Source of the DNA: Nemertoderma westbladi
Lineage: Eukaryota > Animalia > Xenacoelomorpha
Assembly: GCA_032718475.1 (NCBI GenBank)
Contig: JAUCBJ010008896.1
Coordinates: forward strand, 186,001 to 250,000
Length of the DNA stretch: 64,000 nt
Reading direction: 5' to 3'
In this document: piece after piece, positions 28,763 through 59,482 of the stretch
Position numbering within the stretch: the first letter of the stretch is position 1
Layout of the letters: each line of letters begins with the position of its first letter
The notes under the pieces: model-generated
Database searches by the model: none
What the model saw: the letters and a program-made list of their open reading frames with translations, nothing else
Told to the model about the DNA's origin: nothing
Made by a program: the position numbers and the translations under genes

Positions 28763-29036
28763 GTATTAACTGTAATGTACATGGCTACTTAAATGATAAA
28801 TTATAGGGACATTGCTATCACATCAATTAGTAGTAAAATTCTAGAATTAGTATATCATGACCAATTTGGCGCAAAACTAAGTACTTCCAATTCACAATTT
28901 GGCTTAAAAAATAAGTTAGGCACAGAATTATGCGTATACACTTTAAAAGAAATCATACAGTACACTAGTAATGGTTACCCCTTTTCTGTGACAGTTGGAC
29001 CAACTTCACACCTTAGGTGTTAAGTAGGTCATTAAT

Positions 29037-29671
29037 TGTGACGGGATCAAAGGACCCCGACCGGGTAGATTGTTTCGTACGCGTCACCGCAGGCTGGGAT
29101 GTCACTGATTGTTTGGCCGAGGCCGTTAGAGAAAACTGAATTGAGTTAATGTTGTTGTTCGACGGACTGATATGATATTGATGGCACAGTTGAAATGATA
29201 TATTTAGTTAATTGGATGCAGAATAAGTGATACCGGTAATAGTAACTAAACAGCCAATGTTGTTGATAGTGACGGTGAAGGTGAAACAACATCACCCATC
29301 TGCACTGAAACTGATAACTGAGTAAACTGAATGATAAACCAGTAGCAAGGAGATAATATACGACACACCAATATTACTTCACTGCTACTTTACTTTGGCC
29401 TCCTTCGCCCTTATTGGCTAATAACCTACTTCACACCTTTCCACTCTCTGGGAGTGTTTCCCCCCTGTTGCTAGCCCCTGCTAGCTGTCTCCCCTTCCGA
29501 GGTGGTTTGACCTCTAACCTCCCTTTGTGTGTGGCTTTGGGGTTTGTACTGTCCCCAATGTTGGTTGTGATACGAGATTAGTTACTGCTAATCTCGTATC
29601 TCCAACATATTGCTGAAAATGCCACTATCCTATTTTATGAGGGTAATGCGGCGGAATTGAATCCGCTTACA
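29037..29671 (-). repeat. 3' LTR of BEL/Pao element D
   Basis: TG...CA ends (minus strand TGTAAG...GTCACA), preceded by polypurine tract GGGGGGGAG at 29672-29680. Related to the LTR at 61685-62233. Confidence 0.85.
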
Positions 29672-30415
29672 CTCCCCCCCATGCTATCTTCCTGGTGAGA
29701 AGATAGCATCATCTACAAGTGCGCTTCAATTCCGCTGGAACCAGATCTACTATCGGGTATGGGGTGGAGTTCTTTTCTCGGAGTAGGCTTTCCAGGCCGC
29801 TCCCTCTGGGTATGATATAACTACCCCTTCTTGGTGCAACCGAAACCTATGTTGCACCAAGACATCTGACGTCTCTGTTCGAGACAATTGTGGACTCCTC
29901 TCACACAATTTTTATATCTCCTCACTCTAAACTGACTCTAACTTTAGCTCCACTCTAACTCCACTCTACTCTATCTTACTCTCGGACCTCTCTGTCCCTT
30001 ACTCTCCCTCTTACTGCTCGTTCCCCACATTTTAAATTGCACCCGTATACTTTCCACACGCGTCAACACCTCCTCTCACTATCTTCCCTGTGCTCCTGTA
30101 CGCAACCCTTACTTGTTTCGCTCTACTCCTTCCTGACGAGCTTCATCCTCCCTTTCCGTGCCGTCGCACTCAAGAAGTGTGATTCGTCTAGTGTCTCGTC
30201 CTCCTGTCATAGTCAATTGGTCCCCAGTCCCAGTAGCTAGTTGGAAAAGGTTACATGACTATAGTACTTACTTTGATTATATTGATTCTAATTATACTCT
30301 ATTGATTATTACATACGTACATACTAATTGCACTTTTATTAAATTTGCACTTAGGAGTTCGTATTGCTTCGCATGTGGTGCCTTCCAGGCATCCCCACAT
30401 CTCCCCCTCCAAGTC

Positions 30416-32994
30416 CTAGTTCGCTCCTCCCGTCTTTGGGAACCATCTCAGTTCCTTCCCTCTGTTGTCGTCCTGTCTCGGTCGCTTCCTTGTTGTCGTC
30501 GCTTCCTTGTTCTTATCCTCCTTAAGGCTCCTCATTCTCGCCGTTACCTCCTTGCTGATCCCCGTGGTCGATTCCTTGGGCGCTGGTGTTATTAGCTCCC
30601 GGTATCGCTTCGCAGGTGGCCCTTCTGAATGCCCCTCCTGCTTCCCCCTAGTAGCGTCCCACAAGATCATCTTCATGGTCCGTGGCACATGCTCCGCCAG
30701 GAAATCTCTGAACTCTCCCCTGTTCTCTGGCGCCCATCTATCTAAATACCTCTGCGTATTGATGACTCCACCATACGATGCCGCCGTCGCTACTTCTTGA
30801 TAAGTAAATGGAAGTCTCCTCTTAATGATTTCCAGATGGGCCTCCTGGTTAATATTGAATAAACCCCAACGGAACTCCTGGGCCTTCATTCTCTGCCGCG
30901 TCATGACGCTGACGTTGGCCCACTCCTCAAAGATCTTAAACTTCTCCTCATCGTCCATCCAGTCGCACTGGTGCCCATAGTGCCCCCGGAAGTTACACTT
31001 AGAACACCGGTTGTGTAACCACGGACACGCCCCCATCCTGTGACTCGACTCGCGGCAGTAGAGGCAACTCGTCCCCTTCTGGAATCGATACAAACAGCTC
31101 TTTTCCTGGTGAGTAAGCCTCCCGCAGTAATCGCAGCCGTGTATCAACACATCCCGCCCCAAGTTGTCTTTTGCCCCAAGCGGTCTCCTAGGTCTATGGA
31201 GCCGTTGGTAAGCAAACTTCTGGACGTTAACGTCTCTGTCCATATCTACGTCCTCGTCTCGCCTTGGCATCGTCTCTCCAAACACTACACTGTGGTGCCG
31301 TTCCTGGTTGCTCGCCCAACCTGATGGTGCTCCCCGCGAAATCCATCGTCGGCTCTTCATGCACCCAGGCCCGCTTGCCGGGTTTATCCCAGAAGGCCCT
31401 CGCCCCGCTGGCCGTCACCACTCCCCCGCCAACCCAGTCCGTGTCTGAGTGGCCGATCCTCTCGATGGGCGGCATCTCCACGAACTCGTCGTCATCCTCA
31501 TCCCCCGCTGGGAGTGGATCCAAACCCGGTATCCCGGCAGACCCACTGTGTCCCTTCCCACCTTGGCTCTTGCCCGTAACTTTCCATCCTTCCAGTTCTC
31601 TCGGTCTCTTTCTCGCGAAATCGCCCTCAGAGCCCGCTGGCATGGGCATCGCTTGCAATCCTGATGTTATCTGTTTCGGCGATTCTTCCGTCCATTCTAG
31701 CTCCTGCCCCAGAGACTCACCCGAGCTCCCTGATCCCCACCGTAACTTGTCCAAGTTCTGGGCCTCGAACCCGTAGTCCTCTTCTCTAGCTTCCGCCTCT
31801 CTTTCGTCTGCCTCCCTCCTTTCTCGCCTGGCGATTTCTTCCAATCGCTTCTCCTCTAGTCTATCCACCTCTAGATTCTCCCACCTCTGATATGGCGTAT
31901 CCACCTCCCTGTCTACTAGATATCGGCAGTTATAGTATACCGACTCGCCCTTCAGCCCCGGGTGGTCTGCCAGACCCTCAAAGGCCACCTTGAAGGCTCT
32001 TCTGTAGTTCAGGGGTGATCCCGACAGCAGAAATGCCGTTGGCTCTCTTCCGATAACCAAGGCCATGAATAGGTTTAGTAAACCTATCATTATCCAATCC
32101 TCCTGCAGGATATATTGCTTCTGATATATCTTTATCACTCCTCTCCAGAATTGATACACCTCCTGTTTCCCTGGCCTCGCTCCCCACTTCAGCGAGTTCG
32201 CCAACTCCGCTCTGTACTCCTCCCTGAATTTACCCCAGTCCATCGGCTTGTGGCAGACGAGCCCCATGAGCTGGCCCATCGCCACTGCTCCGCAATGTCC
32301 TGTATTCTCTACCAATCCCAACCCGGCTGGCCCTGTCATGGCCATGTAGACCGTTTGCATGTCCAGGAGGTTGGGGGTCTCCGGTCCGACGATCCTCTCC
32401 GCATCGTCGCGGATCGCCGATCCCACCTTCATCGTCGACTTGTCCCTCACTAGGTTCTGCACCGCCCTTGGCAACTGGTTCAACTTCGGCCCACTCTTCT
32501 TCCCATACGTTCCCAGATCAAACAGGAATATGTCCCCATTTGGCGCAGCCAAATGCAGAAGTATGGTCCTGGCCGAACCCGCCGACCCTCTTCTCAAACC
32601 CTCATCGTCTTCCATCGGTCCCTTCGTCGTCTAGGACCATGTATCCTCCCCTGCTGACAGACTCTACGAACCTCTTCCAGTCCTTTCTTGGTGATTCCCT
32701 CGGATACTTCGGTATCCCGAACTTCGCCTCGTCTCCCTTCACTACGTAATGGAAATGCTCGAGGATCGCGTTGTCTAGCGACGGCGTCCCGTAGGTCCCG
32801 ACCAGCCTCCTCTCGTGCACCTCCCTGAAATGGTCCTGCAGCGCTCGCGCCTTGTGACCCTTCTCTAACCGCTCGTAGTATCCCCTCGTCTTCTCCTCCG
32901 GATGCCTCTGGGTGAAATCTACTAGTATCTCCTTTCCACCTCTTTCCGCCTTTCTCTTCCTGACAAGTCTCTCCGCCATTACGAACTCTCCCAA
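30416..32994 (-). pseudogene. Extra ORF of the BEL element: DEDDy 3'-5' exonuclease-like domain, acidic linker and three CCHC knuckles (two frameshifts)
   Basis: MVLDDEG / LLHLAAPNGDIFLFDL...LP..VQNLVRD..MKVGSAIRDDA...LLDMQ...QKQYILQED, then CDYC..THQEKSC, CLYC..SHRMGAC and CSKC..GHYGHQC. Confidence 0.65.
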
Positions 32995-33439
32995 TCACTC
33001 ACCCACAAGGTGGTGCCTTACCAAGGCTCAAAGTAGATGAGTGATGTAGTTAAGATGGTCTGTGCGGTCCGATAATGGCCTATCTCTCTCAGAACACTAG
33101 GTTTTATGTTATATTTCACCTATGTACCCACCAAAGTACTAAATTTTCCTAAATTCCCTAAATCTGTCAGTTGCTTTTATTATGTTCTAGAATTTTCTGC
33201 CTACTGTTACCATAATTTGTTGAATTTTATTTTAATACTAATTTTTAATCCTACTACTGTGCTATTGATACTCATAATGGATTATTTTTGTCTAAATAAC
33301 CCCTATGGTTTGCATACAGGGTAGACTAGCTATTCCCTACTGTGCTAGTCCGCACCAGGTAACCTCCTGGCCCTGTATCAAACATTCTGACCTATTCTAT
33401 GGGCTGCGCAGTACAGTAGTCTGTCTCGTACTACCAGTA

Positions 33440-33838
33440 CTCTACTAACGGTACTACGTACCCTCTTACACTCTAACTCTACTAACGGTACTACGTACCC
33501 TCCTACTCTCTAACTCTTACTAATGGTACTACCTACCCTCTTACACTCTAACTCTTACTAACGGTACTACGTACCCTCTTACTCTCTAACTCTTACTAAC
33601 GGTACTACGTACCCTCTTACTCTCTAACTCTTACTAACGGTACTATGTACCCTCTTACTCTCTAACTCTTAGTAACGGTACTACGTACCCTCTTACTCTA
33701 TAATTCTTACTAACGGAACTACGTACCCTCTCATTCTCTAACTCTTACTAACGGTACTACGTACCCTCTTACACTCTAACTCTTACTAACTCTTACTAAT
33801 GGTACTGCATACCCTCTTAATCTCTAACTCTTACTAAC
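33440..33838. repeat. 38-bp minisatellite, ~10 copies
   Basis: Unit CTCTTACTAACGGTACTACGTACCCTCTTACTCTCTAA, between the pol stop and the extra ORF. Confidence 0.9.
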
Positions 33839-34007
33839 TTCTATCTGCCTACTTACTTACTACTACGTACTGTCTACTATTACTTTCTCTTTCTAACTTT
33901 CTACTATTTTATTATTTTTTTTTTATTTTTTTTTTTATATTTTGTGTGGGAAGGGCGTCTCGCCCTCAATCCCACCCCCCTCAGTCCAACACTTGGACGA
34001 CTAAACT

Positions 34008-35344
34008 TTATGGTGCCCCTTCTAGTAGGCAGCACTTTCCCACAGCCCTCCTGTAGGTCTTCCTATCCTTTGCTCCTATCTTACCCCCTATCCGCACTTC
34101 CACCGATCGGACTCTTCTGTCCTCGTTGGGGTAAGTGTCTACTACTCTTGCTAGCCTCCACTGATTGTTGATGATTGCGTCGTCAGTGACGATCACTAAA
34201 TCACCTTTCTTTAACTCTCTAGTGATGTTTCTCCACTTACTCCTCCTGTGTAATGTGGGTAGGTATTCCTCGACCCACCTCCTCCAGTACTCTGCGCTTA
34301 TCGCCTTGGCGACTTTCCAACTCTGGCGGGAGTGTATGTCATCTGGGTCTACACCCTTCATGTCGATGGTCGCCGGCCTTTCCATCAGAAAGTGGCTCGG
34401 TGTTAGCACGTCTAGTGATTCCGGGTCGTCATTCTCTGGATATAGCGGTCTGCTATTAATGATTCCCTCACACCTAGCTAGCACCATTCTTAGAATGTCC
34501 TCTGTCACCATGTGGGTGTTCATCAACTTCGTCATCAGACGCTTGGAACTACCCACAAGTCTCTCGACGCATCCTAATGTATGTGACGCATACAGCGTCC
34601 TCCTTTCCCACTTCACCTGTCGTCTCCTCATGGCTGCCCTGACCTCTTCTCCTTCTAGGATGTCCAAGGCCTCCGCCAACTCGTTCTCCACCCCCACAAA
34701 GTTGGTTCCATTGTCGGAATAGATCACTGCGATCGTCCCACCTTTGCGGTCTCTAAATCTCTCTAAGGCATTGATGAATCCCGATGCCGTAGCGTCCTGG
34801 GCGAGTTCTATTCCTACCGCCCTCGTGTTGTTACATACGAAGATGATGCCGTATCGTTTCTCCATGTGTCGCATCACCTTGATCTTAATCGGCCCAAACA
34901 TGTCTACTCCGCAGTGCGTGAATGGCGGGTCATGCTGTCTCACCCTACTGGCCGGTAATGCATCTCCTGTACGGCCCTCTCCTTTCTCTTCCGTCGGCAG
35001 GTCTGGCATTGCCCCACTACCGCCTTCACCTTCTTTCTTAGCTTCGCGAGCCAGAAGGTCCTCCGTATCTCTGTGTGGGTCTGGTTGGTGCCTCCGTGCA
35101 ATATCGACTTGTGGGAGTCCCAAATGATCTGGTGGACTATCAGCGATCTGTTGGGGATGATAATGGGTTTTGGTGGGTTGATAAGGCTGTTGTTATTCAG
35201 CACTCTGGAGTTCATCACCAGAATCCCGTCATCATTGAGTTGTGGTGACAGCGTGATGAGCTCGCTGTCCCGACGAAGATGTTGCTGCTTGCTAACTCGA
35301 TCCACTTCGTCGCAGCAGTTCTTTCTCTGTTCGTACCGTATCAC
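34008..35344 (-). pseudogene. BEL/Pao integrase (one frameshift)
   Basis: H..LHGG...CQTC zinc-binding domain; GVDMFGP, SDNGTNF and ERLV catalytic motifs; INSRPL, LTPSHFL and YWRRWVEEYL C-terminal motifs. Confidence 0.92.
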
Positions 35345-35350
35345 GGCCTA

Positions 35351-35892
35351 AACCACAGCCACAGCCACAGCCACAACCACAGCCACAACCACAACCACAG
35401 CCACAGCCACAACCACAGCCACAGCCACAACCACAACCACAACCACAACCACAACCACAGCCACAGCCACAACCACAGCCACAGCCACAACCACAGCCAC
35501 AACCACAGCCACAGCCACAACCACAGCCACAGCCACAACCACAACCACAACCACAGCCACAGCCACAACCACAGCCACAGCCACAACCACAGCCACAACC
35601 ACAGCCACAGCCACAACCACAGCCACAACCACAACCACAGCCACAGCCACAACCATAGCCACAACCATAGCCACAACCACAGCCACAGCCACAACCACAA
35701 CCACAACCACAGCCACAGCCACGGCCACAGCCACAGCCACAGCCACAGCCACAACCACAACCACAGCCACAGCCACAACCACAGCCACAACCACAACCAC
35801 AGCCACAGCCCCACAACCACAGCCACAACCACAGCCACAACCACAGCCACAACCACAACCACAGCCACAGCCATAGCCCCAACCACAACCAC
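35351..35892 (+). repeat. (CCACAG/CCACAA)n hexamer array
   Basis: Seen directly in the sequence; produces the spurious HS/CG/WL ORFs. Confidence 0.95.
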
Positions 35893-36289
35893 TTCCTAGC
35901 TCTAGACTGAATCTAGTGTACACTAGCTTTGACTCTCCCAGCTATAGTGATAGTATGCAACCTTGGGAGTTAATGTGCGGTCTTATGAGTAAAGGGCAAG
36001 AGATTAGACTTCATGTTGCCTCCATTGATTCACTCTTCTTAACTTTATAAAATAACTCCACCCTTATTTAAAGTTTTAAAAGTTATGACTTAGTCGACTA
36101 ATTTTCCAAAATATATTATAAAAAACATATAATTTCTTGAATAAATAGACCTAATAGCAATAAATATTGTTGGCAAATACATTTATAATACTAATATAAT
36201 AATTAAGGATAAATACTCCTAATACCAATATAATTGTTATGGATAAATAGTTCTAATACTATTATGAAAGGAACTCAAACAAACAAATG

Positions 36290-37355
36290 TCAATAGTGTC
36301 CTCCTGCGCGGGCATATACTGTACGAGAGTTTTTCATCATAGGTCTTCGAAAATAAGTAAAAGCTGGTTGATTTTCTTTACTTTCATCTTCCTCATTAAC
36401 CAACTGTTTCTTAATTTTATTCAATTGTTCATTAATTTTCAGTAATTTACTTTTATTTCCCAGAACCTGTCTTAATATCTCTTCTCTATTTTCCTCATTT
36501 TCTTCCATTTGTTTAATAAATTTCCGCATTTGATTTTTGTTTCCTAATATTTGTCTCAATATCTCTTCTTTATTTTCATCATTCTCTTCTAAATGTTTAA
36601 TAAATTTCTGTAATTTAATTTTACTTCCTAGAACTTGGGTCAATGTCACCTCTTTATTTTCTTCATTTTCCTTCAAATGTTTAATAATTTTCCGCAATTT
36701 ATTCTTATTTCCAAGTAATTGTCTCAATATTTCCTTATTATTATCATTTTCATCATCTTCTTCACTTTCCTGACCTTCACTTTCTTCGTCCTCTTCCTGA
36801 CCTTCACTTTCTTCGTCCTCTTCCTGACCTTCACTTTCTTCATCCTCTTTCTGACCTTCACTTTCGTCATCCTCTTCCTGTTCTTCACTTTCTTCATCCT
36901 CTTCCTGTTCTTCATTTTCTTCATTCTCTTCCTGACCTTCGCTTTCTTCACCCTCTTCCTGACCTTCACTTTCTTCGTCATCTTCTGACCTTCATTCTCA
37001 ACCTCACTCTCTTCAACTTCATCCTGACCCTCACTATTTTCATTCTCCATCTCATCGTCCTCTTCTTCTTCATCTTCCTCACTCAAATTTTCATCATTTT
37101 CTAGGGGTAACTGTTTTTGTATCCCTTTCAAAATATTCATAACTTTATGAAATTTATTTTCCATTGTCTGTTTTATCTTTAATATATCACGCTCAACTCT
37201 CTTTTTCTTTTCTCTTCATAAAAATATCTCGGATTTTTTAATTTCTTTGGTAATGGTCCATTACACCTTCCTTTCTATGTATACTCATATGGCGGGATAT
37301 ACTGTCTCGTCTCATTTCTTTATTACAAACCAAACATCTTTCATAACTAGGCATT
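36290..37355 (-). pseudogene. C2H2 zinc finger + acidic + helical-repeat protein (frameshifted)
   Basis: MPSYERCLVCNKEMRRDSISRHMSIH at 37355, a 27-bp acidic tandem repeat (ESEGQEEDE) and four EILRQ.LGNK.KL repeats. Paralog of 40931-41575. Confidence 0.7.
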
Positions 37356-37600
37356 ATATAGCAATGTCAATTGATATTATGAATTTTCGCTGAATGATTT
37401 TACAAAATTTTAAATAAATAAAACTTTTATGAAAATAAATAAAACTTTTAAAAATAAAAATTAGAGAATGAATGGGAATGCGGTGAATGGGGGCTATTAT
37501 AGAGGGAGGCTAGAATGGAGTTGTGAAAAAAGAATAATCTATTGTAAACCAGATGTTTCTTGAATTTTTCTCAGGCGTATTTGTCAATAAAGTGGGTGAA

Positions 37601-37808
37601 GGTTGTGGTTGTGGCTGTGGCTGTGGCTGTGGCTGTGGCTGTGGCTGTGGCTGTGGCTGTGGCTGTGGCTGTGGCTGTGGCTGTGGTTGTGGCTGTGGTT
37701 CTGGCTGTGGTTCTGGCTGTGGCTGTGGCTGTGGTTGTAGTTGTGGCTGTGGCTGTGGTTGTGGCTGTGGTTGTTGCTGTGGTTGTGGCTGTGGCTGTGG
37801 CTGTGGTT
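37601..37808 (-). repeat. Hexamer array (GGCTGT/GGTTGT)n, inverted relative to 35351-35892
   Basis: Seen directly in the sequence. Confidence 0.95.
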
Positions 37809-38329
37809 TAGTTAGGATGGGAAATGGGGTGATTTGAGAAGCAGGGAGTGCGCTGGAGAAAAGTGCGTGTAATGAATGGGCTGCTGCGTCAAAATGGGTA
37901 TGTTAATTAATGTTATACTACAGTATCTGAACAAATATTTTAGGTATGGTATAGCAAGCATGAGGGGTTATGCATTACTTCAAACATAAAACTACAGTAA
38001 CTAGTATAGAGATGGTTGGGGATTAATTTGACATATGGTATTTGGGTACTGGCTTTGTCGTTGAGCTAATACTTGGAGTGTGCGGTTGGGCGCGCAGGCT
38101 GCTTCGCAACACAATGTGAAAGAATGCAATCTATTGCAAGACCAGATGTTTATTATAATTTTCTTAGGCGAATTGACAATGGTCTGACATGATAACGAAG
38201 CTGGAGGTTTAAATAATTTAAAATGTGTGCAACCCCATGTTGGCATGCAGTATAACTCAACATGGGATTCAGTGGGATGCTTAATCCTTCACGCATGCCA
38301 TACCAAAAACTATGTCCTGTTTGAAATGT

Positions 38330-38454
38330 TAAGGTGGACCTTTCTATATAAATAAAACCATGTAAAGTTAGATCATTATCTCTAAAAAACATTAAGTGAA
38401 GTTTTTCAAAGTTTTTTTTAAAGTAAATCTTACTAAATTTGTCTTTTTGTTACT
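38330..38454 (+). promoter_or_regulatory. Conserved TATA-containing upstream cassette of the GTSF1-like genes
   Basis: AAGGTGGA..TTTCTATATAAATAAAA...AAGTTA.ATC precedes all three genes (TATATAAA at 38345 on plus; 48900-07 and 49662-69 on minus). Confidence 0.65.
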
Positions 38455-38742
38455 ATGGAGTACTTTATTTGCCCCTATGATGCCACGCACCGGATTCATT
38501 CGGAGAAATACGTCAAACATCTAAGAAAATGCCGCAAGAACTTTCCTGGCCAAAAAATGGTACAGTGTCCCTTTGAAGTTGCGCATAGCTTTAGAGAAGC
38601 CGAAAGGGAACATCATCTACAATTTTGTGAATACAGAAATAGGAGCTCCATTTTTGAGAAATTAAAAGAAGAGAAAAAAGTGGAGAAGAAAGGAGAAGAA
38701 ATTGAATGTCCGGCGGCATGGGGAGAAGAGGTGTGGGATTGA
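38455..38742 (+). CDS. GTSF1-like: GTSF1/Asterix-like protein, copy 1 (element E)
   Basis: Two CHHC (U11-48K-type) fingers, CPYDATH-x9-HLRKC and CPFEVAH-x9-HLQFC, joined by an RKNFP linker; acidic tail CPAAWGEEVWD. Confidence 0.92.
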   Translation: MEYFICPYDATHRIHSEKYVKHLRKCRKNFPGQKMVQCPFEVAHSFREAEREHHLQFCEYRNRSSIFEKLKEEKKVEKKGEEIECPAAWGEEVWD

Positions 38743-40265
38743 TGTGATGATGCGATTCTCCGCACCCTAGTATAAATTGTTATGTAATTATTATTGGTGT
38801 ATAAATTGTATGTACTTGGCGATTAATAATTGGTGCAGCCATGTATATTGTATTATTGTTCCTATTGTATTGCATATTTCATCTGCTGTAGTACAATCTA
38901 TTCAACTCGCGTCCCTATCTGATTGATTTATGTCAAATTAAATTGCCTTTGGCAACATTATTTGATACAAATCGATTGATTAAACAATTAATTAATTGTT
39001 TAATCGACCAATTAATTAATTGTTTAATTAATTAATGACCTACTTAACACCCAAGGTGTGAAGTTGGACCAAACTGTCGCCGAGGATGGCAAACCATTAC
39101 TACTTATAGGGTATCTCGTCTTCTCATTGTGCAGCCACCCAAGCACTACCATGGCAGTAGTGTGTCTCCACTATGTTGGGTATAGTTTCCATCAAGTAGG
39201 CTGTGGCTCTTACTCCTAATCTTGCAGCTTATATGCTTTCTTAAGTATCTGTTTCCCCTTGACTAACAGTGGGGATGCTAGGCCTAAGGGATCGTATATC
39301 ATGCTATGTACAATACATAGCCCCTCTTTGTGTGGATCTCCGTGCCCTCCTGGCTCAGTTGGTACTGGAACTCGTCTGTCTCCCGGTTCCACACGATCCC
39401 CAGCGCCTTCTGCTGAGACTCCACTCTCTTGTCCACCATGTCCTGTCCCTTGGCTGTCATGGGGTTGTCCATGGTCGACTCTGGCTGCCTGTCCTCTATG
39501 GCTTTCATAAACTCCTCTGAGCTGGACTGAAACTTGGTCAGGTTAAATCCGGATCCTTTCAGGATGTCGCGAACCTCGCGCCCTGTAATAATTTCTTTAA
39601 CCGTATTTCCAGATTCCATCCCGTCGTCTACATAGAAGCCGCGTCGAATAATATCGATCGCTTTGAGCAGGGGGGCCCATATCGAGCGGGGCCCAAAACA
39701 TAAATTACCCTTTCAGGAAAATACGTGGGCCAGTTTGGCCCTTTCTCAGTCCCCGAATAATCTGAGGAGCAAGACTAATCCCTTTGAATCTTGTATGTCA
39801 ACGGTAGGTGGGGATTGCGCGAATTGTAAATTATTTAAACCTCCAGCTTCGTTATTATGTAAGATTGGAAACCTTAGGTTTACATCTTACGCGCCAGCAT
39901 TAACCCCAAATCACACATAGGCCAACTACAACCTTGGGCCATATGAGGTTAGCTGAATGTGTGACACACTATTACCACTACTGTATCACTACTATAAACC
40001 CTATTACAGTACCAGAGCTACTGTAGTAGAGCTTGAAACTTTTTGAAGTAGGTTAGATCATGGAAGTTATGAATATGTTATGATTGATTAAGTTACGAGG
40101 TGGAGTGGGAAGGACTCTTATTGGTTAATAAAAGTCTTTAAGTTCATTACAATTTTCCTCACCCATTATTATATTTAATTAAGATGTTTATAACTTTTTA
40201 TTCTTTTTGATAGTAATTCTTATCCTGCTTATTATTTTTATAAATATTTTCTGATTCACTTGAAA

Positions 40266-40587
40266 ATGGACGGGTTTATTGTTGATTTTCAATACCATGT
40301 ACTCAACGACTCATTTTATTCCGTAATATTTAAAGAATTTATGGTTTATGATTGAAGATTGATTGAAGAATGAACTTAGAATAACTGCGCAACTACTGGA
40401 AATATTTGGAATAAATAAGAAATTCATTAACCCTAAAGCAGATTGTCATTTCCACATTAATGCTAACTGTCCTTTTCACATTGACACTAGGGATGGTTGT
40501 ATGAATTATTGTTCTGTCAAGCTAACTGTAGGGTTTGCAAATTATATTCTTAGATGGAAGGTGGATTCTTTTCTACAAAGAGTATAG
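40266..40587 (+). pseudogene. DEDD/Maelstrom-like small ORF (disrupted)
   Basis: MDGFIVDFQYHVLNDSFYSVIFKEFMVYD* then, in another frame, CPFHIDTRDGCMNYCSVKLTVGFANYI. Homologous N-terminus at 61260 on minus. Confidence 0.45.
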
Positions 40588-40930
40588 GATAAAGCTCTAT
40601 TATTGTGAGGGCATCAAGGCATCAACTTAGTACCGCACCTCACTCCCTAATAAGGGAGTGAGGCAAGTCTCTTGTCATGTTTGCCTAACTTTGTGCCTCA
40701 CTATACCATGCACAAACCTCACTTAATAAGCGATAACCTCCCATATATAAATTTCAATTATTAACATTAATCTTTAAACATTAAATTTGAACTATTAATA
40801 ATGTTCCATCTTCTGATATATATTTACTGAGATTTATATTTGTAAGTGAATCCCTAGCTAAACAAACTGAAAATTTTGAAAAAATATAGCTGTAGACATT
40901 TAAAAACATAATACAGTTTTCTTTCATAAA

Positions 40931-41575
40931 ATGCCTAGCTATGAAAAATGCATGGTTTGTGATAAAGAATTGAGACGAGACAATATATCCCGCCATATGA
41001 GTATACATAGAAAGGAAGGTGTAATGGAACCTTCTCCAAAGAAATTAAAAAATAATGATGATATTTTTAGTGAAGATGAGAACAAAAAGAGAGTTGAGAG
41101 TGACTTTCTAGAGATTAAATAAATGATGAAATATAAATTTGAGAAAATCATGAATATTTTGAAAAATATACAGAAACAGCCACCTAGTGAAAAGGATGAT
41201 GAGAGTGAGGAAGATGATAAATCAGAGGAAAGTGAAAAGGTTGAGAATGATGAAACAGAGAGTGAGATAGAGGAAGAAGAAAATGAGAGTGGTGATGAAC
41301 AAAATGAGAGCGAGAAAGAAGTCGAGGAACATGAAAGTGGGGAGGAGAATGATGAGGAGATATTAAGACATGTATTAGGAATTAAAAATAAATTGCAGAA
41401 AATAATTAGACAATTGAATGAAATGCAGAAACATTCGCATAAGGAGAGTGATAATGATGGAAATGAGAGTGATGAGGATGAATTGGAGGAGAGTAATGCT
41501 GGTAGTGTAGAAGAAGCTGAGGAGAGTAGCGACGGCAGTGAGGAAGAATCAGAGGAGAATGACAATGAAAATTGA
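40931..41575 (+). pseudogene. C2H2 zinc finger + acidic protein (one internal stop)
   Basis: MPSYEKCMVCDKELRRDNISRHMSIH, an NLS-like PSPKKLK, an in-frame TAA at 41120-22, Glu/Asp tracts and EILRHVLGIKNKL. Confidence 0.7.
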
Positions 41576-41866
41576 CAGAAAATCAGAGTAGGGAATGGAA
41601 AAGTTATATCTCCAGTAACTGTTGTATACCGGCCTAGGAGTATGAACAGTCATACAGTTAATGCGAGACATTAATTATAACTGATTGTTTGAAATATTTA
41701 TTATATTTAGTCGTATTAATTATGTAATTTCATAATAATATGTTTAATTAGACAAATAAAGTCAACTTGATCCTATTTTAAATGCATAATGAATGGGTAA
41801 CCAAAACATCAAATTAGTTAACAAGACAGATTTTGACAACAGATAAACAAATATTCTCCTGTGGGG

Positions 41867-43976
41867 ATTGATTGATTGATTGTTTATTGTCAGCACAGTA
41901 ATACATTTATATACATTATTACACCAATAAAAACATAATACAAGATAAGATCAATGTAGTGCAGACCGTGGGTAAAATAAATAATTATACATTCGAATAT
42001 AGGCCGTGTGAGACTGATAAGTACGTACATAGTAGATTATGTCATTAAAATAGCACAATAAGTTAATAAGGGAGGATATATAAATAAATAATTAATCCAC
42101 AAATAACTAGCGCCTCGTGAGTGTCCTTCAAAAATTACAATAGATCAATAAATTATCGAAGCGTAAAATTCAATAATCATTCCCCATTTGGTAAATCATT
42201 TTTGCTACATTTATTTGGTCGTCCATGTCAAATAGGGTGGTCAGATCGTTCCAGTTACCTTTAACCGATAATCTAGATTCCGCCGTTTTTGGGCACACGG
42301 TGATGATGTGTTCCTCCGTCTGAACTGCTCCACATCCACACATTCGATTATCCGGTTTTACTCTCGCCCATCTCATTTTTTCGACTGGAAAGTTATGGCT
42401 CCCCAGACGAAACCGGGACCACGCGATTCGGTGACGTTCTGGAACGTTACAGTTGTTGTAAAGAGGTGGCGGTGACAATGTCGGATTCATCAACTTGTAG
42501 AGATGCCGTTTCGTGGTCTTAGATTTAGAGACACGGTCTTTAAGTAATTCGTTTTGTTTTCTAATGTAGTTCAATGGAATTGATTTAGAGCGTTCCATTT
42601 CAGAATACATCGGAGTGTTATTTTCTCTAGCGATTTCCAGAGCAGTTTGTAAGGGAGAATCATCGACTGGTTTAAATTTTATGAGATACTTCCTCTGTTT
42701 ATCGCGAATTAGGGACTCAAATTCTGGGAGGTCGAGTTCGATTAGGCATAATTCCCCGCATGTGGTTGGTCGTACACCTAATAATAAACGAACCAAGGAC
42801 ATATATATTTTAGATATAGGTGCTAGGGATCCGCCGAACCATGTTTCACAGCCATATGTGATTGAGGATAAAACAGCTGCTTCGAATACTTTCCGTTTTA
42901 TAACAAATGGGAGATCGGGGTTTTTACTGATAAAAGTAGAGAACTTGAGAAGATGGCACTGTTTCTCGGAGGCGTGTAGTGCGATCGCTGTTGAGATTGC
43001 ACCATCAGCCGAAATTGGCGAGCCCAGGTAAGTGTAGGAATCCGTGTGTTCGATTTGTTTGTCTCCGATGGAAAATGCACGCTTGTCACAGTCGTTTCCA
43101 TTTATAACTATAAATTTAGTTTTTTTGATATTTATAATCATCCCAGACTGGGAGCAAAAGACTTTCAGAACGTTTAATTTCTCAATTATTTTATCTCTGG
43201 TTGTACCGAGTATGGCTGTGTCATCCATCAGTAAAATGCTATGAAGCTTTTTCAACCAATCGTCCCATGGTAAATTTCGTAGTGCTCGTACAAAAAAATC
43301 TATTACAATTACAAATAGGAAACCGCTTCCTGGGGAACCCTGACGGACTCCTTTGTTACAAATTACACGAAGATTGTTAATATTGGCAATAGTTAACTTG
43401 TACATCGCTTGGAGGCAGCTGAGCATCTTATTACCACATCCTAAACTTTTTAATGTTTGGAACATGAAGGTCCTCTTGACGTTGTCGTATGCTTTCTCGT
43501 AGTCCACGAATGTAATATAGAGGATTTTCTTATACACTTTGGCATAATCACACAGGATACGAATAGCTAGGATCTGTTCAATGCAACCACGCCCTTTACT
43601 TGCCCCAGCCTGTTCTGGGAGCGGTTTATACCATGAATGGAGTCTAACAGTGAGCACCGTGTCAAAAAGCTTTGGTAAGCAGTTCATTATACTGATGCCT
43701 CTGTAATTAGTTGGTAAGAAACGGCAGCCCTTTTTGAAAATAGATATCAGTGTAGCGTGGGCCCACATTACTGGGTAGATTCCTGAATTAAAAACTAAAT
43801 TAAATAGCAGAGATATAGAAATTAACCAATTAAGTGGGAGCGCTTTGATGTAATCTGCAGAGAAGACCATCTGGCCCTGAAGCCTTACGTGAACTCAATT
43901 TTGAAGCAGCAGCTGCAACTTCGTTAATTGATATCTCTTCATCTAATAGTGGTATTGACAAATTTGTTGTAATGTT
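41867..43976 (-). mobile_element. 5'-truncated LINE with (TCAA)n tail, inserted in element C
   Basis: RT ORF at 42170-43870 (NYRGIS, FVDYEKAYD, GVRQGSP, LLMDD, YTYLG, C-terminal CGCG..TEEH..C). Tail GACAATAAACAATCAATC at 41867-41890. Confidence 0.9.
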
Positions 43977-43989
43977 GTGAGGGAGAAGT

Positions 43990-47450
<3,461 letters not shown>

Positions 47451-48525
47451 TATTAAAACACTTCTTATTAGTGAATGTTTTCGCCCTAACCGGGCTACTT
47501 CAGACTATAATGCAGTATTAGGAATGTATATAGTTAAAATTATTGCATCCCACCACCAAATCAATATTCCCTCTCTTTTATAATATTGGGTTCTGTCATA
47601 AACTAATAAGGGTACGTAAATAGCATAAATGGAGAGAAATAGAAATATATATACAGTAGTTTAACTAGAACTATCATTATTAAATAAGGAACAGAAACAT
47701 CATTAAATGAAAATAAAGTAAATACCAGATATAGACTAGTTAGTTAGGTTATACAGTAGGCTTTAGAGATAGCATGGTTACTTCCAACGTATTGTGCACA
47801 AATACAAAACAGAAACCTCCGGATGGTGAAAAACGCAGAGTACAACGGCATTAATAGTAATAGATCTATGCGCAAATAGACAAAAACACAATAAAAATAT
47901 ACTTATAATGTGTACAGTAGGGTGAGAAAACGGTTTATGGTAAGGTTATTAAATGTCAAAAAATTGAAAAATTAATTCAATGATACAGTATATATTGTCC
48001 AATTGGATTGACAACCAAAAATATAGAATACAATAAACAAATTATAAGACAGCATGATACACTACCTACTAATTGTTGGTGCTGGCGTACATAGCAGACT
48101 CAATATTCACAAAGAGAACTATAATCAGTACAGTGATTTACTGAGGTACCATTGACAGTTAAAATTTCGCGGTCTGAGGAACGCCATGTAAAACAAAAAA
48201 ATTAATATTTTTTACATTAATGCACATCCCTGAACTATCACAAAAATACAAAGACAATAATAATAGTGCGGTTTATACGTTGTGGTAAAAGGCAAATATC
48301 GAAATCGAGAAATGTTACCCTTACAACAAAAAGCAAGTATCGAAATATAATGTGTATCGAAATCCCATTATACTGTTAGTGTGTTGTACAAACAATCCTT
48401 ATGGCGAAAGGTTAATATTGAAGACGAAATATATAATGTGTTTAAGGGTATATGCGCTATACAGTACACGGTATTAAATAGGGTTTAGAATAATAGGGTC
48501 TAATCAATCCATTCCAAACTAATGA

Positions 48526-48789
48526 TCAGCCCCACACCTCTTCTCCCCATGCCGCTGGCCGTTTAATCTCTTCTTCTTTCGAATTTTCGAAAAGGGAACT
48601 CCTATTCCTATACTCGCAATATTTTATGTGGTGTTCCCTTTCGGCTTCTCTGAAGCTGTGTGCATTTTCAAATGGGCATTGTACCATTTTTTTGCTAGGA
48701 AAGTTCTTCCGACACTTTCTTATATGTTTCACATATTTCTCTGAAAGAATCCTATGTGTGGCATCGTATGGGCATATAAGATAATCCAT
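48526..48789 (-). CDS. GTSF1-like: GTSF1/Asterix-like protein, copy 2 (element C)
   Basis: CPYDATH..HIRKC and CPFENAH..HIKYC fingers; tail PAAWGEEVWG; intact 87-aa ORF. Confidence 0.92.
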   Translation of the reverse strand: MDYLICPYDATHRILSEKYVKHIRKCRKNFPSKKMVQCPFENAHSFREAEREHHIKYCEYRNRSSLFENSKEEEIKRPAAWGEEVWG

Positions 48790-49202
48790 AGTGCCAAAAA
48801 GAGAAATTTAATAGGATTTAATTTAAAAGAAAACTTTGTTTTGGAAAACTTAACTTTAACGTTTTTTAGAGATAATGATTTAACTTGATATGATTTTTAT
48901 TTATATAGAAAGGTCCACCTTAACATTTCAAACAAGGCCGTAGTTTTTGGCATGGCATGCGTGAGGGATTAAGCAGTACATAAAACTGCGGTAGTAGAGG
49001 CGGTTGAGGATTAATTTAATGGAGACAACATATCAAATATGTCTGTCCTTCCCATTGTCCCTATAGCTCGCATTAGCTCTATTGCTCCCAAAACTACAAT
49101 AAATTGCATTAATTAATAAAGATTTTAATAATAATATTTTTACAGTACTAAACCAAACCAAAACAAAACAAACTAAACTAAACCAAACCTAGTCCATCAG
49201 TC

Positions 49203-49535
49203 TCAATCCCAAGCTTCTTCTCTCCATTCCGTCGGCCATTCGCATTGTTCTTGTTCTTGTTGTACTTTTCCCTCATTCTCTCCATATTGATTCTTTAACT
49301 CTTTCTCAATTCTGAACTCATGAGCTTGCCAACATAGTGGTAACCCATTCCTATAATGACAATTCTTTATGTGAAACTCCTTTTCTTCTTTTGGAAAACT
49401 GTGCACTGGATCGTTGGGGCACTCTTTGACAAACTCAACCCCCGGCTTTCTACATATTATTAGATGCCTAAGCACTCGAGCATCGGCGACTCTGTGGGAA
49501 GGGTTGTAAGGACATATTTGATATGTCACCTCCAT
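49203..49535 (-). CDS. GTSF1-like: GTSF1/Asterix-like protein, copy 3 (divergent; element C)
   Basis: CPYNPSH..HLIIC and CPNDPVH..HIKNC fingers; tail CEWPTEWREEAWD; intact 110-aa ORF. Confidence 0.9.
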   Translation of the reverse strand: MEVTYQICPYNPSHRVADARVLRHLIICRKPGVEFVKECPNDPVHSFPKEEKEFHIKNCHYRNGLPLCWQAHEFRIEKELKNQYGENEGKVQQEQEQCEWPTEWREEAWD

Positions 49536-49954
49536 TGTTAGTTTCTATATTTAAGAATAACGTGTTGTAGAATAAGAATAAGAATAAGATTTTACTAGGA
49601 ATATTAAGAAGTTTTACTAAGGCAGTAAAAACAATTAAGATTTAACTTTACGTGATTTTTATTTATATAGAAAAATCCACCTTAACATTTAGCACACCAC
49701 AAACAAGGCCGTAGTTTTAGGTATGGTATGGCAAGCACTAGGGATTATGCATTACTTCAAACATAAAACTACAGTATCTAGTATAGAGATGGTTGGGGAT
49801 TATTTTAACATATGGTTTTTTGGGTAGGGCTAATACTTGGAGCGTGCGATCATGCGTGCAGGATGCTTCATAAAGTACAATGTGAAAGAATTCAATCTAT
49901 TGCAAACCAGATGTTTATTGTAATTTTCTCAGACGATTTGACAATGGTCTACAT

Positions 49955-50486
49955 GATAACGAAGCTGGAGGTTTGAATAATTTAAAATTCGTGGCAGCCC
50001 CATGTTGGCATACAGTATAACTCAACATAGGATTCAATGGGATTAGTCATGCTACGTCTAATAAGAGCCCAAACAGTCTCAGATTATTGGGGGACTGAGC
50101 CAAGGCCAAACTGGCCCACATATTTTCCTGAAACGGTAATTTATGTTTTTGGCCCCGCTCGCATCTTTATATTTCATTCTATCATTCTATTGTACGAAAA
50201 AAATAATACAAATGTACTGTATATTGTATTGTATGGTACCTATTGTATTGTATATTTTATCTACTGTACCTACTGTAGTACTACTATCTATTCATTGCGC
50301 GTCCCATGTCTGATTGATTTGTGTCAAATTAAATTGCCTTTGACAACATTATTTGATTCAAATCGATCGATTAAACAATTAATTAATTGTTTAATCGACC
50401 AATTAATTAATTAATTAATGACCTACTTAACACCTAAGGTGTGAAGTTGGTCCAACTGTCGCAGAAAAGGGGTAACCATTACTACT
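49955..50486. repeat. Right terminal inverted repeat of element C
   Basis: Inverse of 28964-29036 and ~39680-39860; ends ...CCATTACTACT. Inner boundary approximate. Confidence 0.8.
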
Positions 50487-51864
50487 CAGTACTATTTGGA
50501 TAATGACAGCCCAATTTATATTTGTTTTATAGACTCTTCTAAAGCCTTCGACTTAGTTAATCACTATGAATTATTCTCTAAATTAGTTGATCGCAATATT
50601 TCTACTTTTCATATTAGGATTATCAGGTATTGGTATCGTTTTCAAACTCTTACTTTACTTTGGGGCAGGTGCACTTCTAGTAGTTTTACGGTAACAAACG
50701 GGACAAAACAAGGGGGGATTCTATCTGGTTATCTGTATGCTGTTTACGTAGACGACCTTAGTAGGGAACTTAACAATACTAATGTAGGTTGTCAACTTAA
50801 TAACCGTAGGTGTAAGTAATCACTTAATGTACACTGATGACCTGTCTTTAGTTTCTAATTCCATAGCTGGTCTTAGAAAACTTATTGATACTTACATAGA
50901 CTTTGCAGATAGGCACTCCATCATTATAAATATTAAGAAATCTAAGTTCATGACCTATACACCAAAATTATACAATTTATATATATATATATAGCCTTGT
51001 AGATGGTATCAGTATTTAATGGTAAATCAATAGAAACTGTAAGTAAATACAAGTACTTAGGCCATACTTTCCACAACACAACTGATGACAATTATAATAT
51101 CCTTAACCAACTGTCAAGTCTTTATAGAAGAGGAAACTTTTTAATACGTAAATTTAGCTATTGCTCAAAAATTGTCAACATAAAACTTTTCAGGTCACTT
51201 TGCACTCAGATCTACTGTAACTCCCTATGGGCGAGAAGTAATTTTTCACTCTCCATATATAGTAAATTCCGCATTGCATATAATAATATTATTAGAAAAC
51301 TTTTTGGTTTTAGTTACGATTCCAGCGTATCTTACATGTGTGGTATACTGAATGTACCCAAATTAGTACATATCTGTCACAATGCGCAGAAATCATTATT
51401 GAGATGCATGAGATCATCAGAGAATAGCCTTGTACAGTCAGTTGCCTTAGAAACGCTTCAAACGAGTCACATATTTGGTATAAGTCTGTGCAGGGAATAA
51501 TTTGCTTACAGTTCTTATATTGTTATGTGTTATGTTATAGTTATTTTATTGTCCTTTGTTCTAATATTATATATTTTCCATAATTATACCTATTATACCC
51601 TCTATATTTATTATATTATATACTTACACCCTTTTAGTATAAATTTCTAGTATAAATAATACTTAACATTTGCATTTATTTTTATTTTTTTTTTTTGTCC
51701 TTGCTCGGATATTTTCTTGTTTCCCTTCCGTTGTAATTATTACCTATTATATTATATTATAATTATTATGTTATAATTATACTACAAATATTATTATCTA
51801 GCCACTGGGATTTTACTGTACTATATGGGCTATGTATGCCTGGATTAAAGATTAATAATAATAA

Positions 51865-53175
51865 TAAACATTTAGAGAATGCAATTCCAGAAGAACTAAT
51901 CAAGTACTTGGTAGATTTAGACATTGACGGATCTACTGGATATTTCTTAATATGTGATTTAAGATACCCCAAAGCTATTCACAATCAAACATTAGAATTA
52001 CTGTTAGCACCTGAGCATTTAAGTATAAACGAGTCAATGCTTTCACCATATATGAGAGAACAATTTAATAACTTATCTAAACAAAGAGGTACTAATAACA
52101 AATATAAGATATGTACACCAAAACTCATGCTGACACAATTTGATAAAGAATTTTATCATTTACATTTGAAACTCTTAAATTCGATATAAAACAAGGATTA
52201 ATTGTTACTAAGCTATATAAATTACATTCTTTCCATCAAGAATTTGTATTTAAAGCTTACATAGATTTTAATATTAATCAAAGACATTTTTAGCAAAAAC
52301 TTACATTGAAACAGCTGTTGCAAAGCTGCTGAATAACAGTCTCTTTGGAAAAACAATAGAAAAAATAATGGATCGATATAATTTCTGTATTGCCAATAGC
52401 AATGATAAATGCGATCAATTGATCAAACGTATTAATCATGAAAAATGTATAATATATAATAATACATTATCAGGTCATTTATTAGGAAAAGATAGTGTGA
52501 CACTTGATAAGCCTATTTTTATTGGTAGCATGGTGTTGGATTTAGTCAACATAGTCAGTTTGGATATAGGATGAGCTTTACTACGATAGATTACTTCCAA
52601 TAGAGAAAGAATTAAACTGTTGAATAAAGCTTGTTGCATCAGATAGACTCTTTAATAGGTTGTTATTATAATACATCGCAGAGAAATTTTTTAAAAGCAT
52701 TAATTAAAAATAATATTTTAGATACCTCCAATTACCCTATAGATCACCTGATAAAAATAAATCAAAACTTTATTACTGTAAAGATGAACTAGCCTCACGC
52801 GAAATTAAACAAACAGTATTTTTAAGCCAAAGTTATATTCAATTTTGGAATGGAATAATATAAATATTCGCCGAGCAAAAGGTATAACAAGAGCTGTTGT
52901 GGAAACGAATATTACTCATAAAGAATATTTAAACGCATATAACACAAATGAAGAAATAAAAAAAAATACACAGATTTCAATCTAAATTACATCATATTTA
53001 TACTTTAAAGCAAAATAAATTTGAACTCAGTAGCTTTGATGATAAACTTTATTGGCTTAATAAAAATCAATCACTTCCTTGGGGGCACTATAAAACAAAG
53101 CTTAAAAAACCTATAAAAAAATCAAATATACCAATTTATGAAGAACCAGAGGATGAATTATCAAATAATGAATAA
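51865..53175 (+). pseudogene. Protein-primed family B DNA polymerase, 3' part
   Basis: GYFLICDLRYP..H...LAPE; KLLNNSLFGKT (motif B); LDKPIFIGSMVLDL; degenerate motif C near 52640; DTSNYP; KDE; RAKGI; LSSFDDK...LPWGHY. Confidence 0.88.
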
Positions 53176-58411: not shown

Positions 58412-59116
58412 TATTATCCTATATTTAACAAACTGGTTAATAATTTATTAATGTTTGGTGATGGGATTTTAGCCATAAAATATAATTAGAGAGAGAGAAA
58501 TTCATTCTTGTTCAGTGTCAGCATTTTGGCTATAAAATATAATCAGAGGGAGAAGAAATTCAACAATATTTTTTAAATCAACAACTAGTTAGGGAAACTA
58601 ACTTCAGCGCGAACGCTTGTAACAGCCTGTATGTATGCTTAGTATACACAGAGTCAGTAGCTTGCTAGGTACCTTGTTGCTCACGAGCCGAGGTTGCGCT
58701 TTTGTTACTTATGAGTGTGTGTGTGTGTGTGCAGCGCATTGCTATCGCTAGCTAAATTACACATCGCTAAGGCTGGTGAGAAAAGTTTAGGCCTATTTGT
58801 TATATTTGTACTATCTGTTACTTGCATGTATACATATAATTAAAACACAGGCTATGCATTTCACTACATTCAGAATAGAATAATGAACATATATCGCTAA
58901 TCCGCATGGGAAAAGTTTATATTGAACATTTTGTTAACTATGTGAATTTTGAAATGTGAACATCTGCGACTGTCTACAAAATTAAATATAAACTCAATTT
59001 TTGTAACAGTGAATTATAATTTTGTTAAACAAAAATAAATAAAAAATACCAGTATACCGTATCCATACTGTTACCCTTAGACTATATATAAACTATCCTG
59101 TGAAGTTATTACGAAG

Positions 59117-59482
59117 ATGACTTTTGCTTTTATTAATAACCGCTCGATGAAAACCAACATAAAGTTCGATTTCGAGAGCGAAGATACTTTCCTCTCATCA
59201 GTAAACGTGACGGATTTGGAAATCAGATATAATAATATAAAATTTGAAATTGGTTTCACAAACATTATAAACCATGAACAAGGTATAACCAAGTTAGAAA
59301 CGACAAAAAACTTTTCATTAAATATAAGAATACAACAAGGATCTGAAGAAGTTTATCAAAAAGAATTAATACCAGCAACTCAAGAAGAGAATTGGGAAAC
59401 AGATACACCAACTGTACCAGCAGAGGCTACTTGGAAAGAAATTCAACATGTTATACCTACCGGTAATAATCATTTTTCATAG
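59117..59482 (+). CDS. Small unknown protein with EENWE...W tail
   Basis: 121-aa intact ORF, paralog of 60283-60667 (shared KFD.E, TTKNFSL, EENWE). Upstream region duplicated (58545-59050 vs 59897-60230). Confidence 0.55.
   Translation: MTFAFINNRSMKTNIKFDFESEDTFLSSVNVTDLEIRYNNIKFEIGFTNIINHEQGITKLETTKNFSLNIRIQQGSEEVYQKELIPATQEENWETDTPTVPAEATWKEIQHVIPTGNNHFS

Follow-up and report, generated by a model that had tools for sequence, protein, structure and literature searches.

Here we report that two nested mobile elements in the genome of the xenacoelomorph Nemertoderma westbladi carry small homologs of GTSF1/Asterix, an essential cofactor of the PIWI proteins that act in transposon silencing guided by PIWI-interacting RNAs (piRNAs). 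The analysis concerns 64,000 nucleotides (nt) of contig JAUCBJ010008896.1 (contig positions 186,001 to 250,000; this whole stretch is called the window, and coordinates below are window positions). Three of its open reading frames (ORFs), named O1, O2 and O3, encode GTSF1-family proteins; O1 lies in the element E2, and O2 and O3 lie in the element E1. Both elements are non-autonomous and Polinton-type by their ends, the ORFs sit in modular cassettes present in many copies, and the comparison of O1 with O2 carries the signature of purifying selection on the protein. Our preferred reading, held tentatively and at slightly less than even confidence, is that these GTSF cassettes, kept on Polinton-type elements by selection on the protein, may act as decoys on host PIWI.

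As an earlier note on this DNA had claimed, the three frames are uninterrupted, contain both CHHC zinc fingers and end in an acidic tryptophan motif:

38455..38742, plus strand: O1, GTSF1-like ORF of 95 amino acids (aa), ending WGEEVWD
48526..48789, minus strand: O2, GTSF1-like ORF of 87 aa, ending WGEEVWG; 82% identity to O1
49203..49535, minus strand: O3, GTSF1-like ORF of 110 aa, ending WPTEWREEAWD; ~45% identity to O1/O2 over the fingers

The expected zf-U11-48K domain was recovered by hidden Markov model search above the Pfam cut-off in O1, O2 and O3 (E 3e-8, 7e-13 and 3e-12, respectively), and each protein matches the strict tandem CHHC pattern (CPx4Hx9Hx3C, two N-terminal fingers). A profile of the three aligns over both fingers with mouse GTSF1 (6x46, E 1e-13) and with the GTSF1 chain of 9nhb (E 1e-12). 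Its match to U11-48K is limited to a single finger (E 0.004), for which reason identity as U11-48K or TRM13 was rejected. A HMMER search of 1.84 billion representatives returned 1069 matches at E <= 0.001. Of 20 matches looked up among the best 150 of these 1069, those that bear a name are eukaryotic host proteins, many called 'gametocyte-specific factor 1', and span coelacanth, frog, mosquito, octopus, sea spider and beetle; none of the 20 bears a viral name. An ESM Atlas search was consistent with this assignment; word-based homologue searches with O2 and with the three-sequence alignment gave no matches, the relatives having come from the HMMER search. The AlphaFold model of O3 reaches a predicted local distance difference test score (pLDDT) of 86-95 across the fingers, and its best Foldseek rows in the PDB are 6x46 (E 0.007) and 9nhc_E (E 0.02), both modest E-values. 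O1-O3 are GTSF1-family proteins.

The elements that carry them were delimited within the window and compared with public contigs of three runs, X1, X2 and X3, which comprise DNA-type contigs from at most three samples and three studies, X1 and X3 sharing one sample. Summed contig depth in these runs is not a copy number, and only gaps of one to two orders of magnitude are interpreted. E1 occupies 28964-50486, has AG...CT inverted ends and a 6-bp target-site duplication (TSD), and splits a long interspersed nuclear element (LINE). The window has two copies of the sequence CCATTACTACT, one at 39094 and one at 50476. The earlier placement of all three ORFs within about 2 kb of such a terminus holds: O1 ends 362 bp from the first, and the second is 951 bp from the start of O3 and 1697-1960 bp from O2. 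The parts of the two elements, with their terminal inverted repeats (TIRs) and the inserted long terminal repeat (LTR) and LINE sequences, are as follows:

28958..28963: left copy of the E1 TSD, CAGTAC, identical to 50487-50492
28964..29037, plus strand: left terminus of E1 (outer TIR portion), interrupted by a BEL/Pao element; 72/74 nt match the reverse complement of 50413-50486
29038..35349, minus strand: BEL/Pao LTR retrotransposon in the E1 left TIR, continuing at 39105-39682; approximate ends; DUF5641/rve, Integrase_H2C2 and Peptidase_A17 matches
35350..39104: E2, of a related subfamily, nested in BEL; right terminus at 39104, left terminus missing; 38842-39104 against 50218-50486, 234/254 aligned nt
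36293..37354, minus strand: E2 gene with C2H2 finger and acidic/coiled-coil region, frameshifted, within the high-depth core of the family; six-frame translation; depth 16-60k in X1
39683..39861, plus strand: inner part of the E1 left TIR, resuming after BEL; 159/178 aligned nt match the reverse complement of 49950-50161
40931..41575, plus strand: E1 gene with C2H2 finger and acidic region, in-frame stop at 41120; weak zf-C2H2 match, E 0.07
41650..47455: LINE (reverse transcriptase at 42170-43870, minus strand) and CCCTCACT satellite in E1; approximate ends; RVT_1 E 3e-29, repeats
49950..50486, minus strand: right TIR of E1, at least ~540 bp, ending in CCATTACTACT; contig depth up to 26k (X1) and 49k (X3)
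50487..50492: right copy of the E1 TSD, where the LINE resumes; RVT_1 E 9e-13 for 50487-50816

The reverse transcriptase frame of the interrupted LINE can be followed across E1, from ...KEIIQY in the left flank to QYYLDND... in the right, the two being halves of one frame, and LINE contigs in X1, X2 and X3 begin matching exactly at 50487, as expected for empty sites. BEL contigs of run X2 likewise begin matching at 39105, right after the end of E2, and the termini of E2 and E1 are 92% identical over 254 nt. There are indeed two distinct elements, but they are nested, E2 in BEL/Pao in E1, and not adjacent. The proposed linkage of the ORFs to TIRs holds for E1, which is bounded by TIRs at both ends, but only in part for E2, which lacks a left terminus in the window. 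Inverted (GTGGCT)n microsatellites at 35350-35890 and 37590-37810 lie on either side of the E2 C2H2-acidic gene; the left one (35350-35890) marks the place from which E2 sequence and part of BEL have been lost.

AG...CT ends are typical of Polintons. The long TIRs of E1 (matching pieces of 74 nt and 178 nt that span ~540 bp) and its 6-bp TSD fall within the Polinton ranges of 100-1500 bp and 5-8 bp, respectively (10.1101/2023.08.22.554363). The earlier designation as Polinton-type therefore fits the ends, TIR length and TSD, but neither element contains a Polinton core gene within the window. After subtraction of the insertions, E1 has ~5 kb and E2 ~3.7 kb of its own DNA, and both hold small ORFs only by six-frame reading; the same reading of this DNA found no ORF for pPolB, integrase, packaging ATPase, protease or capsid, and the integrase matches in the window belong to the inserted BEL and Gypsy elements. 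Because polymerase, integrase and capsid genes are absent from both, E1 and E2 are non-autonomous elements, Polinton-type by their ends, that fail the gene set defining Polintons.

A decayed pPolB-like gene surrounds these elements at 25717-28800 and 51737-53170, split by the LINE that E1 entered; it was assigned by a discernible KxxxNSxFGK motif together with a weak Pfam match (E 0.05). Nesting is thereby five levels deep, with the pPolB-like gene containing the LINE, the LINE E1, E1 the BEL element and BEL E2. Neither termini of the outer pPolB-like element nor ends of it matching E1 were found in the window. The relic was considered as a part of E1 and rejected, since it is situated beyond the TSD and the LINE into which E1 inserted divides it.

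Each GTSF unit consists of a promoter-like core and an ORF, together ~770 bp. The cores, which would function as promoters, are located as follows:

38324..38353, plus strand: core with a TATATAA box, upstream of O1
48899..48928, minus strand: core upstream of O2, common to O1-O3
49661..49690, minus strand: core upstream of O3, common to O1-O3

The TATA box precedes the ATG by 110-134 bp in O1, O2 and O3, and the core occurs nowhere else in the window. Among the public contigs, joints skip the O3 unit (48986 to 49763 and 49019 to 49829), and others connect tandem O3 units (49808 back to 49039) or tandem O1 units (38745 back to 37988). The GTSF cassettes are modular and multi-copy, being gained, lost and tandemly repeated among these contigs. 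Their summed depth is ~90-400 over O2/O3 (X1, X2) and 530-750 over O1, against 6,000-53,000 at the TIR ends and 16,000-60,000 over the C2H2-acidic gene of E2 (X1); the lowest-depth contigs stand at ~20-35. These values suggest a large family of ends, a small minority of which carries GTSF cassettes.

Several further observations concern the cassettes. Contigs of X1 and X2 (depth 59 and 43) skip 38699-38736, which encodes the tryptophan tail of O1, so that a tail-less variant exists in two studies. The O3 unit (49039-49808) and a broken ORF of E1 (39925-40610) have a depth of 630-730 in X3 and 100-230 in X1, which come from one sample; the flanking repeats differ only about two-fold between these runs, and library bias or real copy variation may be responsible. 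In run X5, which has the same species label and comes from another study, the TIR and C2H2-acidic regions are covered and the GTSF ORFs are not; this run was not used as evidence.

Between O1 and O2 there are 32.5 synonymous differences at 47.0 sites and 17.5 non-synonymous differences at 214.0 sites, giving a ratio of non-synonymous to synonymous divergence (dN/dS) of 0.045 (bootstrap upper bound 0.13; Fisher p 4e-17). In the first 62 codons the two agree at position 1 in 54, at position 2 in 59 and at position 3 in 37. Chance open frames were rejected on this dN/dS, and the pattern points to strong purifying selection on the O1/O2 protein in the past. The DNA upstream of O1 and O2 is 90% identical (160/177 aligned nt), and the TIR ends are 92% identical. 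Over this long divergence, then, the protein was conserved and the flanks stayed alike, by either cassette exchange or constraint on the flanks; old genes moving among younger element frames would fit the contrast, and flank constraint would look alike.

Relationships with host proteins were analyzed using trees of 134 finger domains, from which 19 of the best 150 of the 1069 matches were excluded for want of the strict CHHC pattern. O1-O3 are at most 47-48% identical to any of the 131 host finger domains, and the identity of O3 to O1/O2 is near the host-host median of 40%. The three group together with weak support (SH-aLRT 86 in the quick tree; 91/20 in the careful tree). Hosts usually have an intron after finger 1: in metagenome loci, many of them redundant, the site after the CRK codons is followed by a GT donor in 67 of 96 motif matches, is contiguous in 12 and is neither in 17. 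O1-O3 read through this site.

Mouse GTSF1 needs four basic residues of finger 1 (R26, R29, K36, K39; PMC9385479) and binds PIWI via W98, W107 and W112 (PMC9385479; PMC9539491). Of this basic RNA-binding ridge, O1 and O2 retain three of four positions, which is the host mode (94/131 hosts), and O3 retains two, as do 19/131 hosts. The terminal tryptophan of O1-O3 aligns with an acidic tryptophan motif present in 67/131 hosts (one alignment was made with 21 hosts, chosen mostly for having the motif), and O3 has two tryptophans nine residues apart, as are mouse W98 and W107. All three proteins stop 1 residue after the conserved tryptophan; in the 67 hosts with the motif a median of 144 residues follows, with 4 of the 67 ending within 3, among them a 98-aa Manduca protein (KAG6445697.1) with a build like that of O1-O3. 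Because host paralogs of equal build exist, the 'minimal' build of O1-O3 would not imply dominant-negative action. Docking of O1-O3 on PIWI is a reasonable inference from these features, which as sequence do not separate an inhibitor from an activator.

E1 contains one more ORF of interest, the broken one already mentioned:

40266..40587, plus strand: broken E1 ORF, with a stop and a frameshift near 40353-40363; no family match

Other copies are longer at 40353-40363, where a contig joint carries 193 other letters (X2, X3); the window copy is internally deleted. The contig depth of this ORF tracks that of O3. Searches in Pfam, PHROGs, PDB sequences and the ESM Atlas, as well as fold searches, gave no match for 40266-40587, nor did a word-based search with its C-terminal piece, and the structure model, made from the internally deleted sequence, has a pLDDT of 52. 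Its ends resemble the DEDD-like start and the C-terminal Cys/His zinc site of Maelstrom-type domains, a likeness of motifs that no search confirmed. The broken ORF may on this basis be the known Polinton 'MAEL' gene. MAEL is labelled in Polintons four times in Suppl. Fig. S2 of the adintovirus paper by Starrett et al. (PMC8502044), and 'mael-associated' polintons appear in the Pannagram preprint (10.1101/2025.02.07.637071); the label carries no stated function in the accessible portions of either.

To place these findings among other element-borne genes, we searched viral and metagenome contigs and the literature. The GTSF alignment, the broken ORF and the TIR had no relatives among viral contigs, in a search that is weak for animal elements; the sole finger-motif match there (L001) was rejected as chance, lying inside an unrelated gene of a prophage-like locus. 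No TIR match was found in metagenome contigs, in a search with the same weakness. GTSF profile matches are present in 95 of at least 119 loci, comprising L001 and at least 118 from the metagenome scan, on mostly short contigs; tblastn of the pPolB-like pieces of the window and other element ORFs against these loci gave no match, and no Polinton family was found among 24 long ORFs neighboring the GTSF loci. One metagenome contig (L044:2084-2990) has two exons for finger 1 of GTSF1, separated by 838 bp and both with a GT donor behind them; these are tandem host paralogs of an unrelated animal. Among viral folds, O3 is matched best by a 'putative glycoprotein' of Vesanto virus (E 0.04, rmsd 10), and the Vesanto proteins A0A7D4W433 and A0A7D4W439 are among the top three viral fold matches (E 0.04 and 0.2); we regard this as a lead only. 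Vesanto virus encodes a PolB and has inverted terminal repeats. The accessible text of the Vesanto virus paper makes no mention of zinc fingers (PMC8363768). In the literature searched, whose coverage excludes most subscription papers and Repbase notes, we found no element-borne GTSF1 and nothing linking zf-U11-48K to viruses, and GTSF is unmentioned in the readable parts of the PMC8502044 supplement and of the Pannagram preprint. Non-autonomous Polinton-type elements whose modular cargo consists of GTSF1 homologs under selection have apparently not been described before.

How the cassettes might work as decoys can be outlined from established GTSF1 biochemistry. E1 and E2, being gene-poor with Polinton-type ends, were likely mobilized by a Polinton partner, and their swappable cassettes of promoter and GTSF1 ORF would be maintained by protein-level selection. 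The cassettes may have originated in an autonomous polintovirus and would be expressed in the germline. O1-O3 would likely dock on host PIWI-piRNA-target complexes, finger 1 contacting the RNA duplex and the acidic tryptophan tail binding PIWI, and so displace the host cofactor and weaken silencing; inhibition could be due to the lack of the long C-terminal region or to engagement of a PIWI that O1-O3 are unable to activate. The PIWI* complex on engaged targets comprises PIWI with GTSF1 and Maelstrom (PMC13269885; PMC13618286), and 9nhc is, by its PDB title, a SIWI-piRNA-target-GTSF1-Maelstrom complex. We favor a decoy for two reasons: selection on the cargo of a selfish element is most simply explained if the element profits, and PIWI binding by a paralog without activation is biochemically possible. 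GTSF paralogs can be specific for one PIWI and fail to activate another (PMC9385479). Polintons, moreover, already have their MAEL-labelled gene, whose name matches that of the other PIWI* cofactor (PMC8502044). In a bolder and rather doubtful version, a polintovirus lineage and its satellites would encode GTSF1 mimics, in two divergent versions perhaps for different PIWIs, together with a Maelstrom-like domain, and would jam piRNA silencing at target engagement, forming a protein system dedicated to countering piRNAs much as anti-CRISPRs counter CRISPR.

Several points weigh against a decoy. A trans-acting suppressor would benefit all transposons in the cell, so that selection for it on a non-infectious element would be weaker. 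In contig depth the TIR ends exceed the GTSF ORFs by one to two orders of magnitude, and the element family appears for this reason to have spread mostly without GTSF genes. Among the 40 of 352 differences listed, 13 separate O3 from other copies, and 10 of these are non-synonymous if each is considered by itself, 6 of the 10 clustering at a local indel pair; constraint on the window copy of O3 may therefore have ceased. Support for a single origin of O1-O3 is weak, and a second lineage of element-borne GTSF1 was not found in the viral or metagenome contigs. O1-O3 also keep the features needed for PIWI activation, namely three (O1, O2) or two (O3) of the four basic positions and the tryptophan, and carry no sequence mark of inactivity; equally short host GTSF paralogs are known in Manduca (98 aa) and in Drosophila, for which a 93-aa paralog is listed (PMC12014135).

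This last set of features is what one would expect if O1-O3 were working PIWI activators, with the element supplying a cofactor that boosts or redirects slicing, for example against competitors or viruses, or that limits its own copy number, so that carriers are tolerated or favored. The basic ridge, both fingers and the conserved tryptophan are kept, the tryptophan pair of O3 is spaced like mouse W98/W107, short host paralogs exist, and silk-moth Gtsf1-like stimulated MIWI (PMC9385479); carrier copies, moreover, have a low depth, as self-limitation would predict. A selfish element, however, has little to gain from a stronger silencing pathway, and repeated duplication and the position next to the TIR suggest benefit to the element, so that we consider activation possible but on balance improbable. 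The same low depth, with carriers only a minority of the ends, would also suit passenger retrocopies of host GTSF1, captured in the manner of Pack-transposons and now neutral cargo, the selection signal stemming from their past as host paralogs. The missing host intron fits capture from mRNA, the remaining genes of E1 and E2 are broken, and recent O3 copies differ mostly non-synonymously among the differences listed. Yet one promoter-like core is common to O1-O3 and repeated in the sub-terminal DNA of the element, and all three ORFs stop 1 residue past the tryptophan. Upstream DNA that is 90% identical beside near-saturated synonymous sites in O1/O2 is, furthermore, unlikely to result from two independent captures, and whole-gene capture by Pack-MULEs and Helitrons is reported to be exceptionally rare (PMC6431247). 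We therefore regard passenger status as unlikely.

The proteins might instead serve the element's own cycle through RNA or a partner other than PIWI, such as tRNA, an RNA-dependent RNA polymerase (RdRP) or element transcripts. Finger 1 of mouse GTSF1 binds tRNA (PMC9539491), and nematode GTSF-1 has switched its partner to RdRP (PMC13650160). In doing so, however, the nematode protein lost the aromatic residues and basic surface (PMC13650160), both of which O1-O3 keep, ending at a PIWI-type tryptophan motif, which makes such a role distinctly improbable.

The remaining features of the window lie outside E1 and E2. A Gypsy insertion occupies 53517-58414, with LTRs of ~106 bp. Beyond it, 58534-60640 contains two duplicated upstream regions (81% identical), each before a short unknown ORF (59117 and ~60284), another layout of promoter and ORF that possibly belongs to the outer element. 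A separate element of ~2.1 kb at 23052-25144 has inverted ends of 66-69 bp (90% identical) and an internal 21-bp tandem repeat, and two paralogous single-ORF genes at 8963-9532 and 15513-16073 have a MARVEL domain below the Pfam cut-off. Rfam gave no match in 22000-64000.

It has long been an open question whether animal transposons encode dedicated anti-piRNA proteins, comparable to those that viruses direct against RNA interference and phages against CRISPR; one animal case, TART-A/nxf2, is proposed to work via RNA (PMC7785250). The homologs on E1 and E2 are small and have been under selection, the PIWI cofactor they resemble is essential, and slicing and reporter assays for testing them already exist. 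If inhibitory, they would be anti-piRNA factors of an animal DNA element that work as proteins; if activating, they would present a mobile element arming host defence. Either outcome would give functional context to the already-labelled Polinton MAEL gene.

Comparison with known systems places O1-O3 within the GTSF1/Asterix family (mouse 6x46, 9nhc, Manduca KAG6445697.1), with which they share the tandem CHHC fingers, the basic ridge of finger 1 and the acidic tryptophan motif; unlike those proteins, they are encoded on a mobile TIR element, lack the intron after finger 1 and end 1 residue past the tryptophan. Polintons/Mavericks (adintoviruses) resemble E1 and E2 in their long TIRs, TSD size class and accessory genes near the ends, and offer in MAEL a precedent for a gene named after a piRNA factor, but E1 and E2 are without pPolB, integrase, ATPase, protease and capsid genes. 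Drosophila TART-A is likewise a transposon with sequence of a piRNA-pathway gene, nxf2, and a proposed counter-defence; that proposal involves antisense piRNAs from a gene fragment (PMC7785250), whereas O1-O3 are whole ORFs with a conserved protein and synonymous sites near saturation. A TART-like RNA mechanism for the cassettes was rejected, as selection acts on the protein. We know of no VANC protein of the Arabidopsis VANDAL transposons that is a copy of a host silencing cofactor. VANCs are transposon-encoded proteins that counter host silencing, a function only proposed here, and in contrast to that proposal they are sequence-specific, act on their own elements and oppose epigenetic silencing (PMC5735166, PMC10398659).

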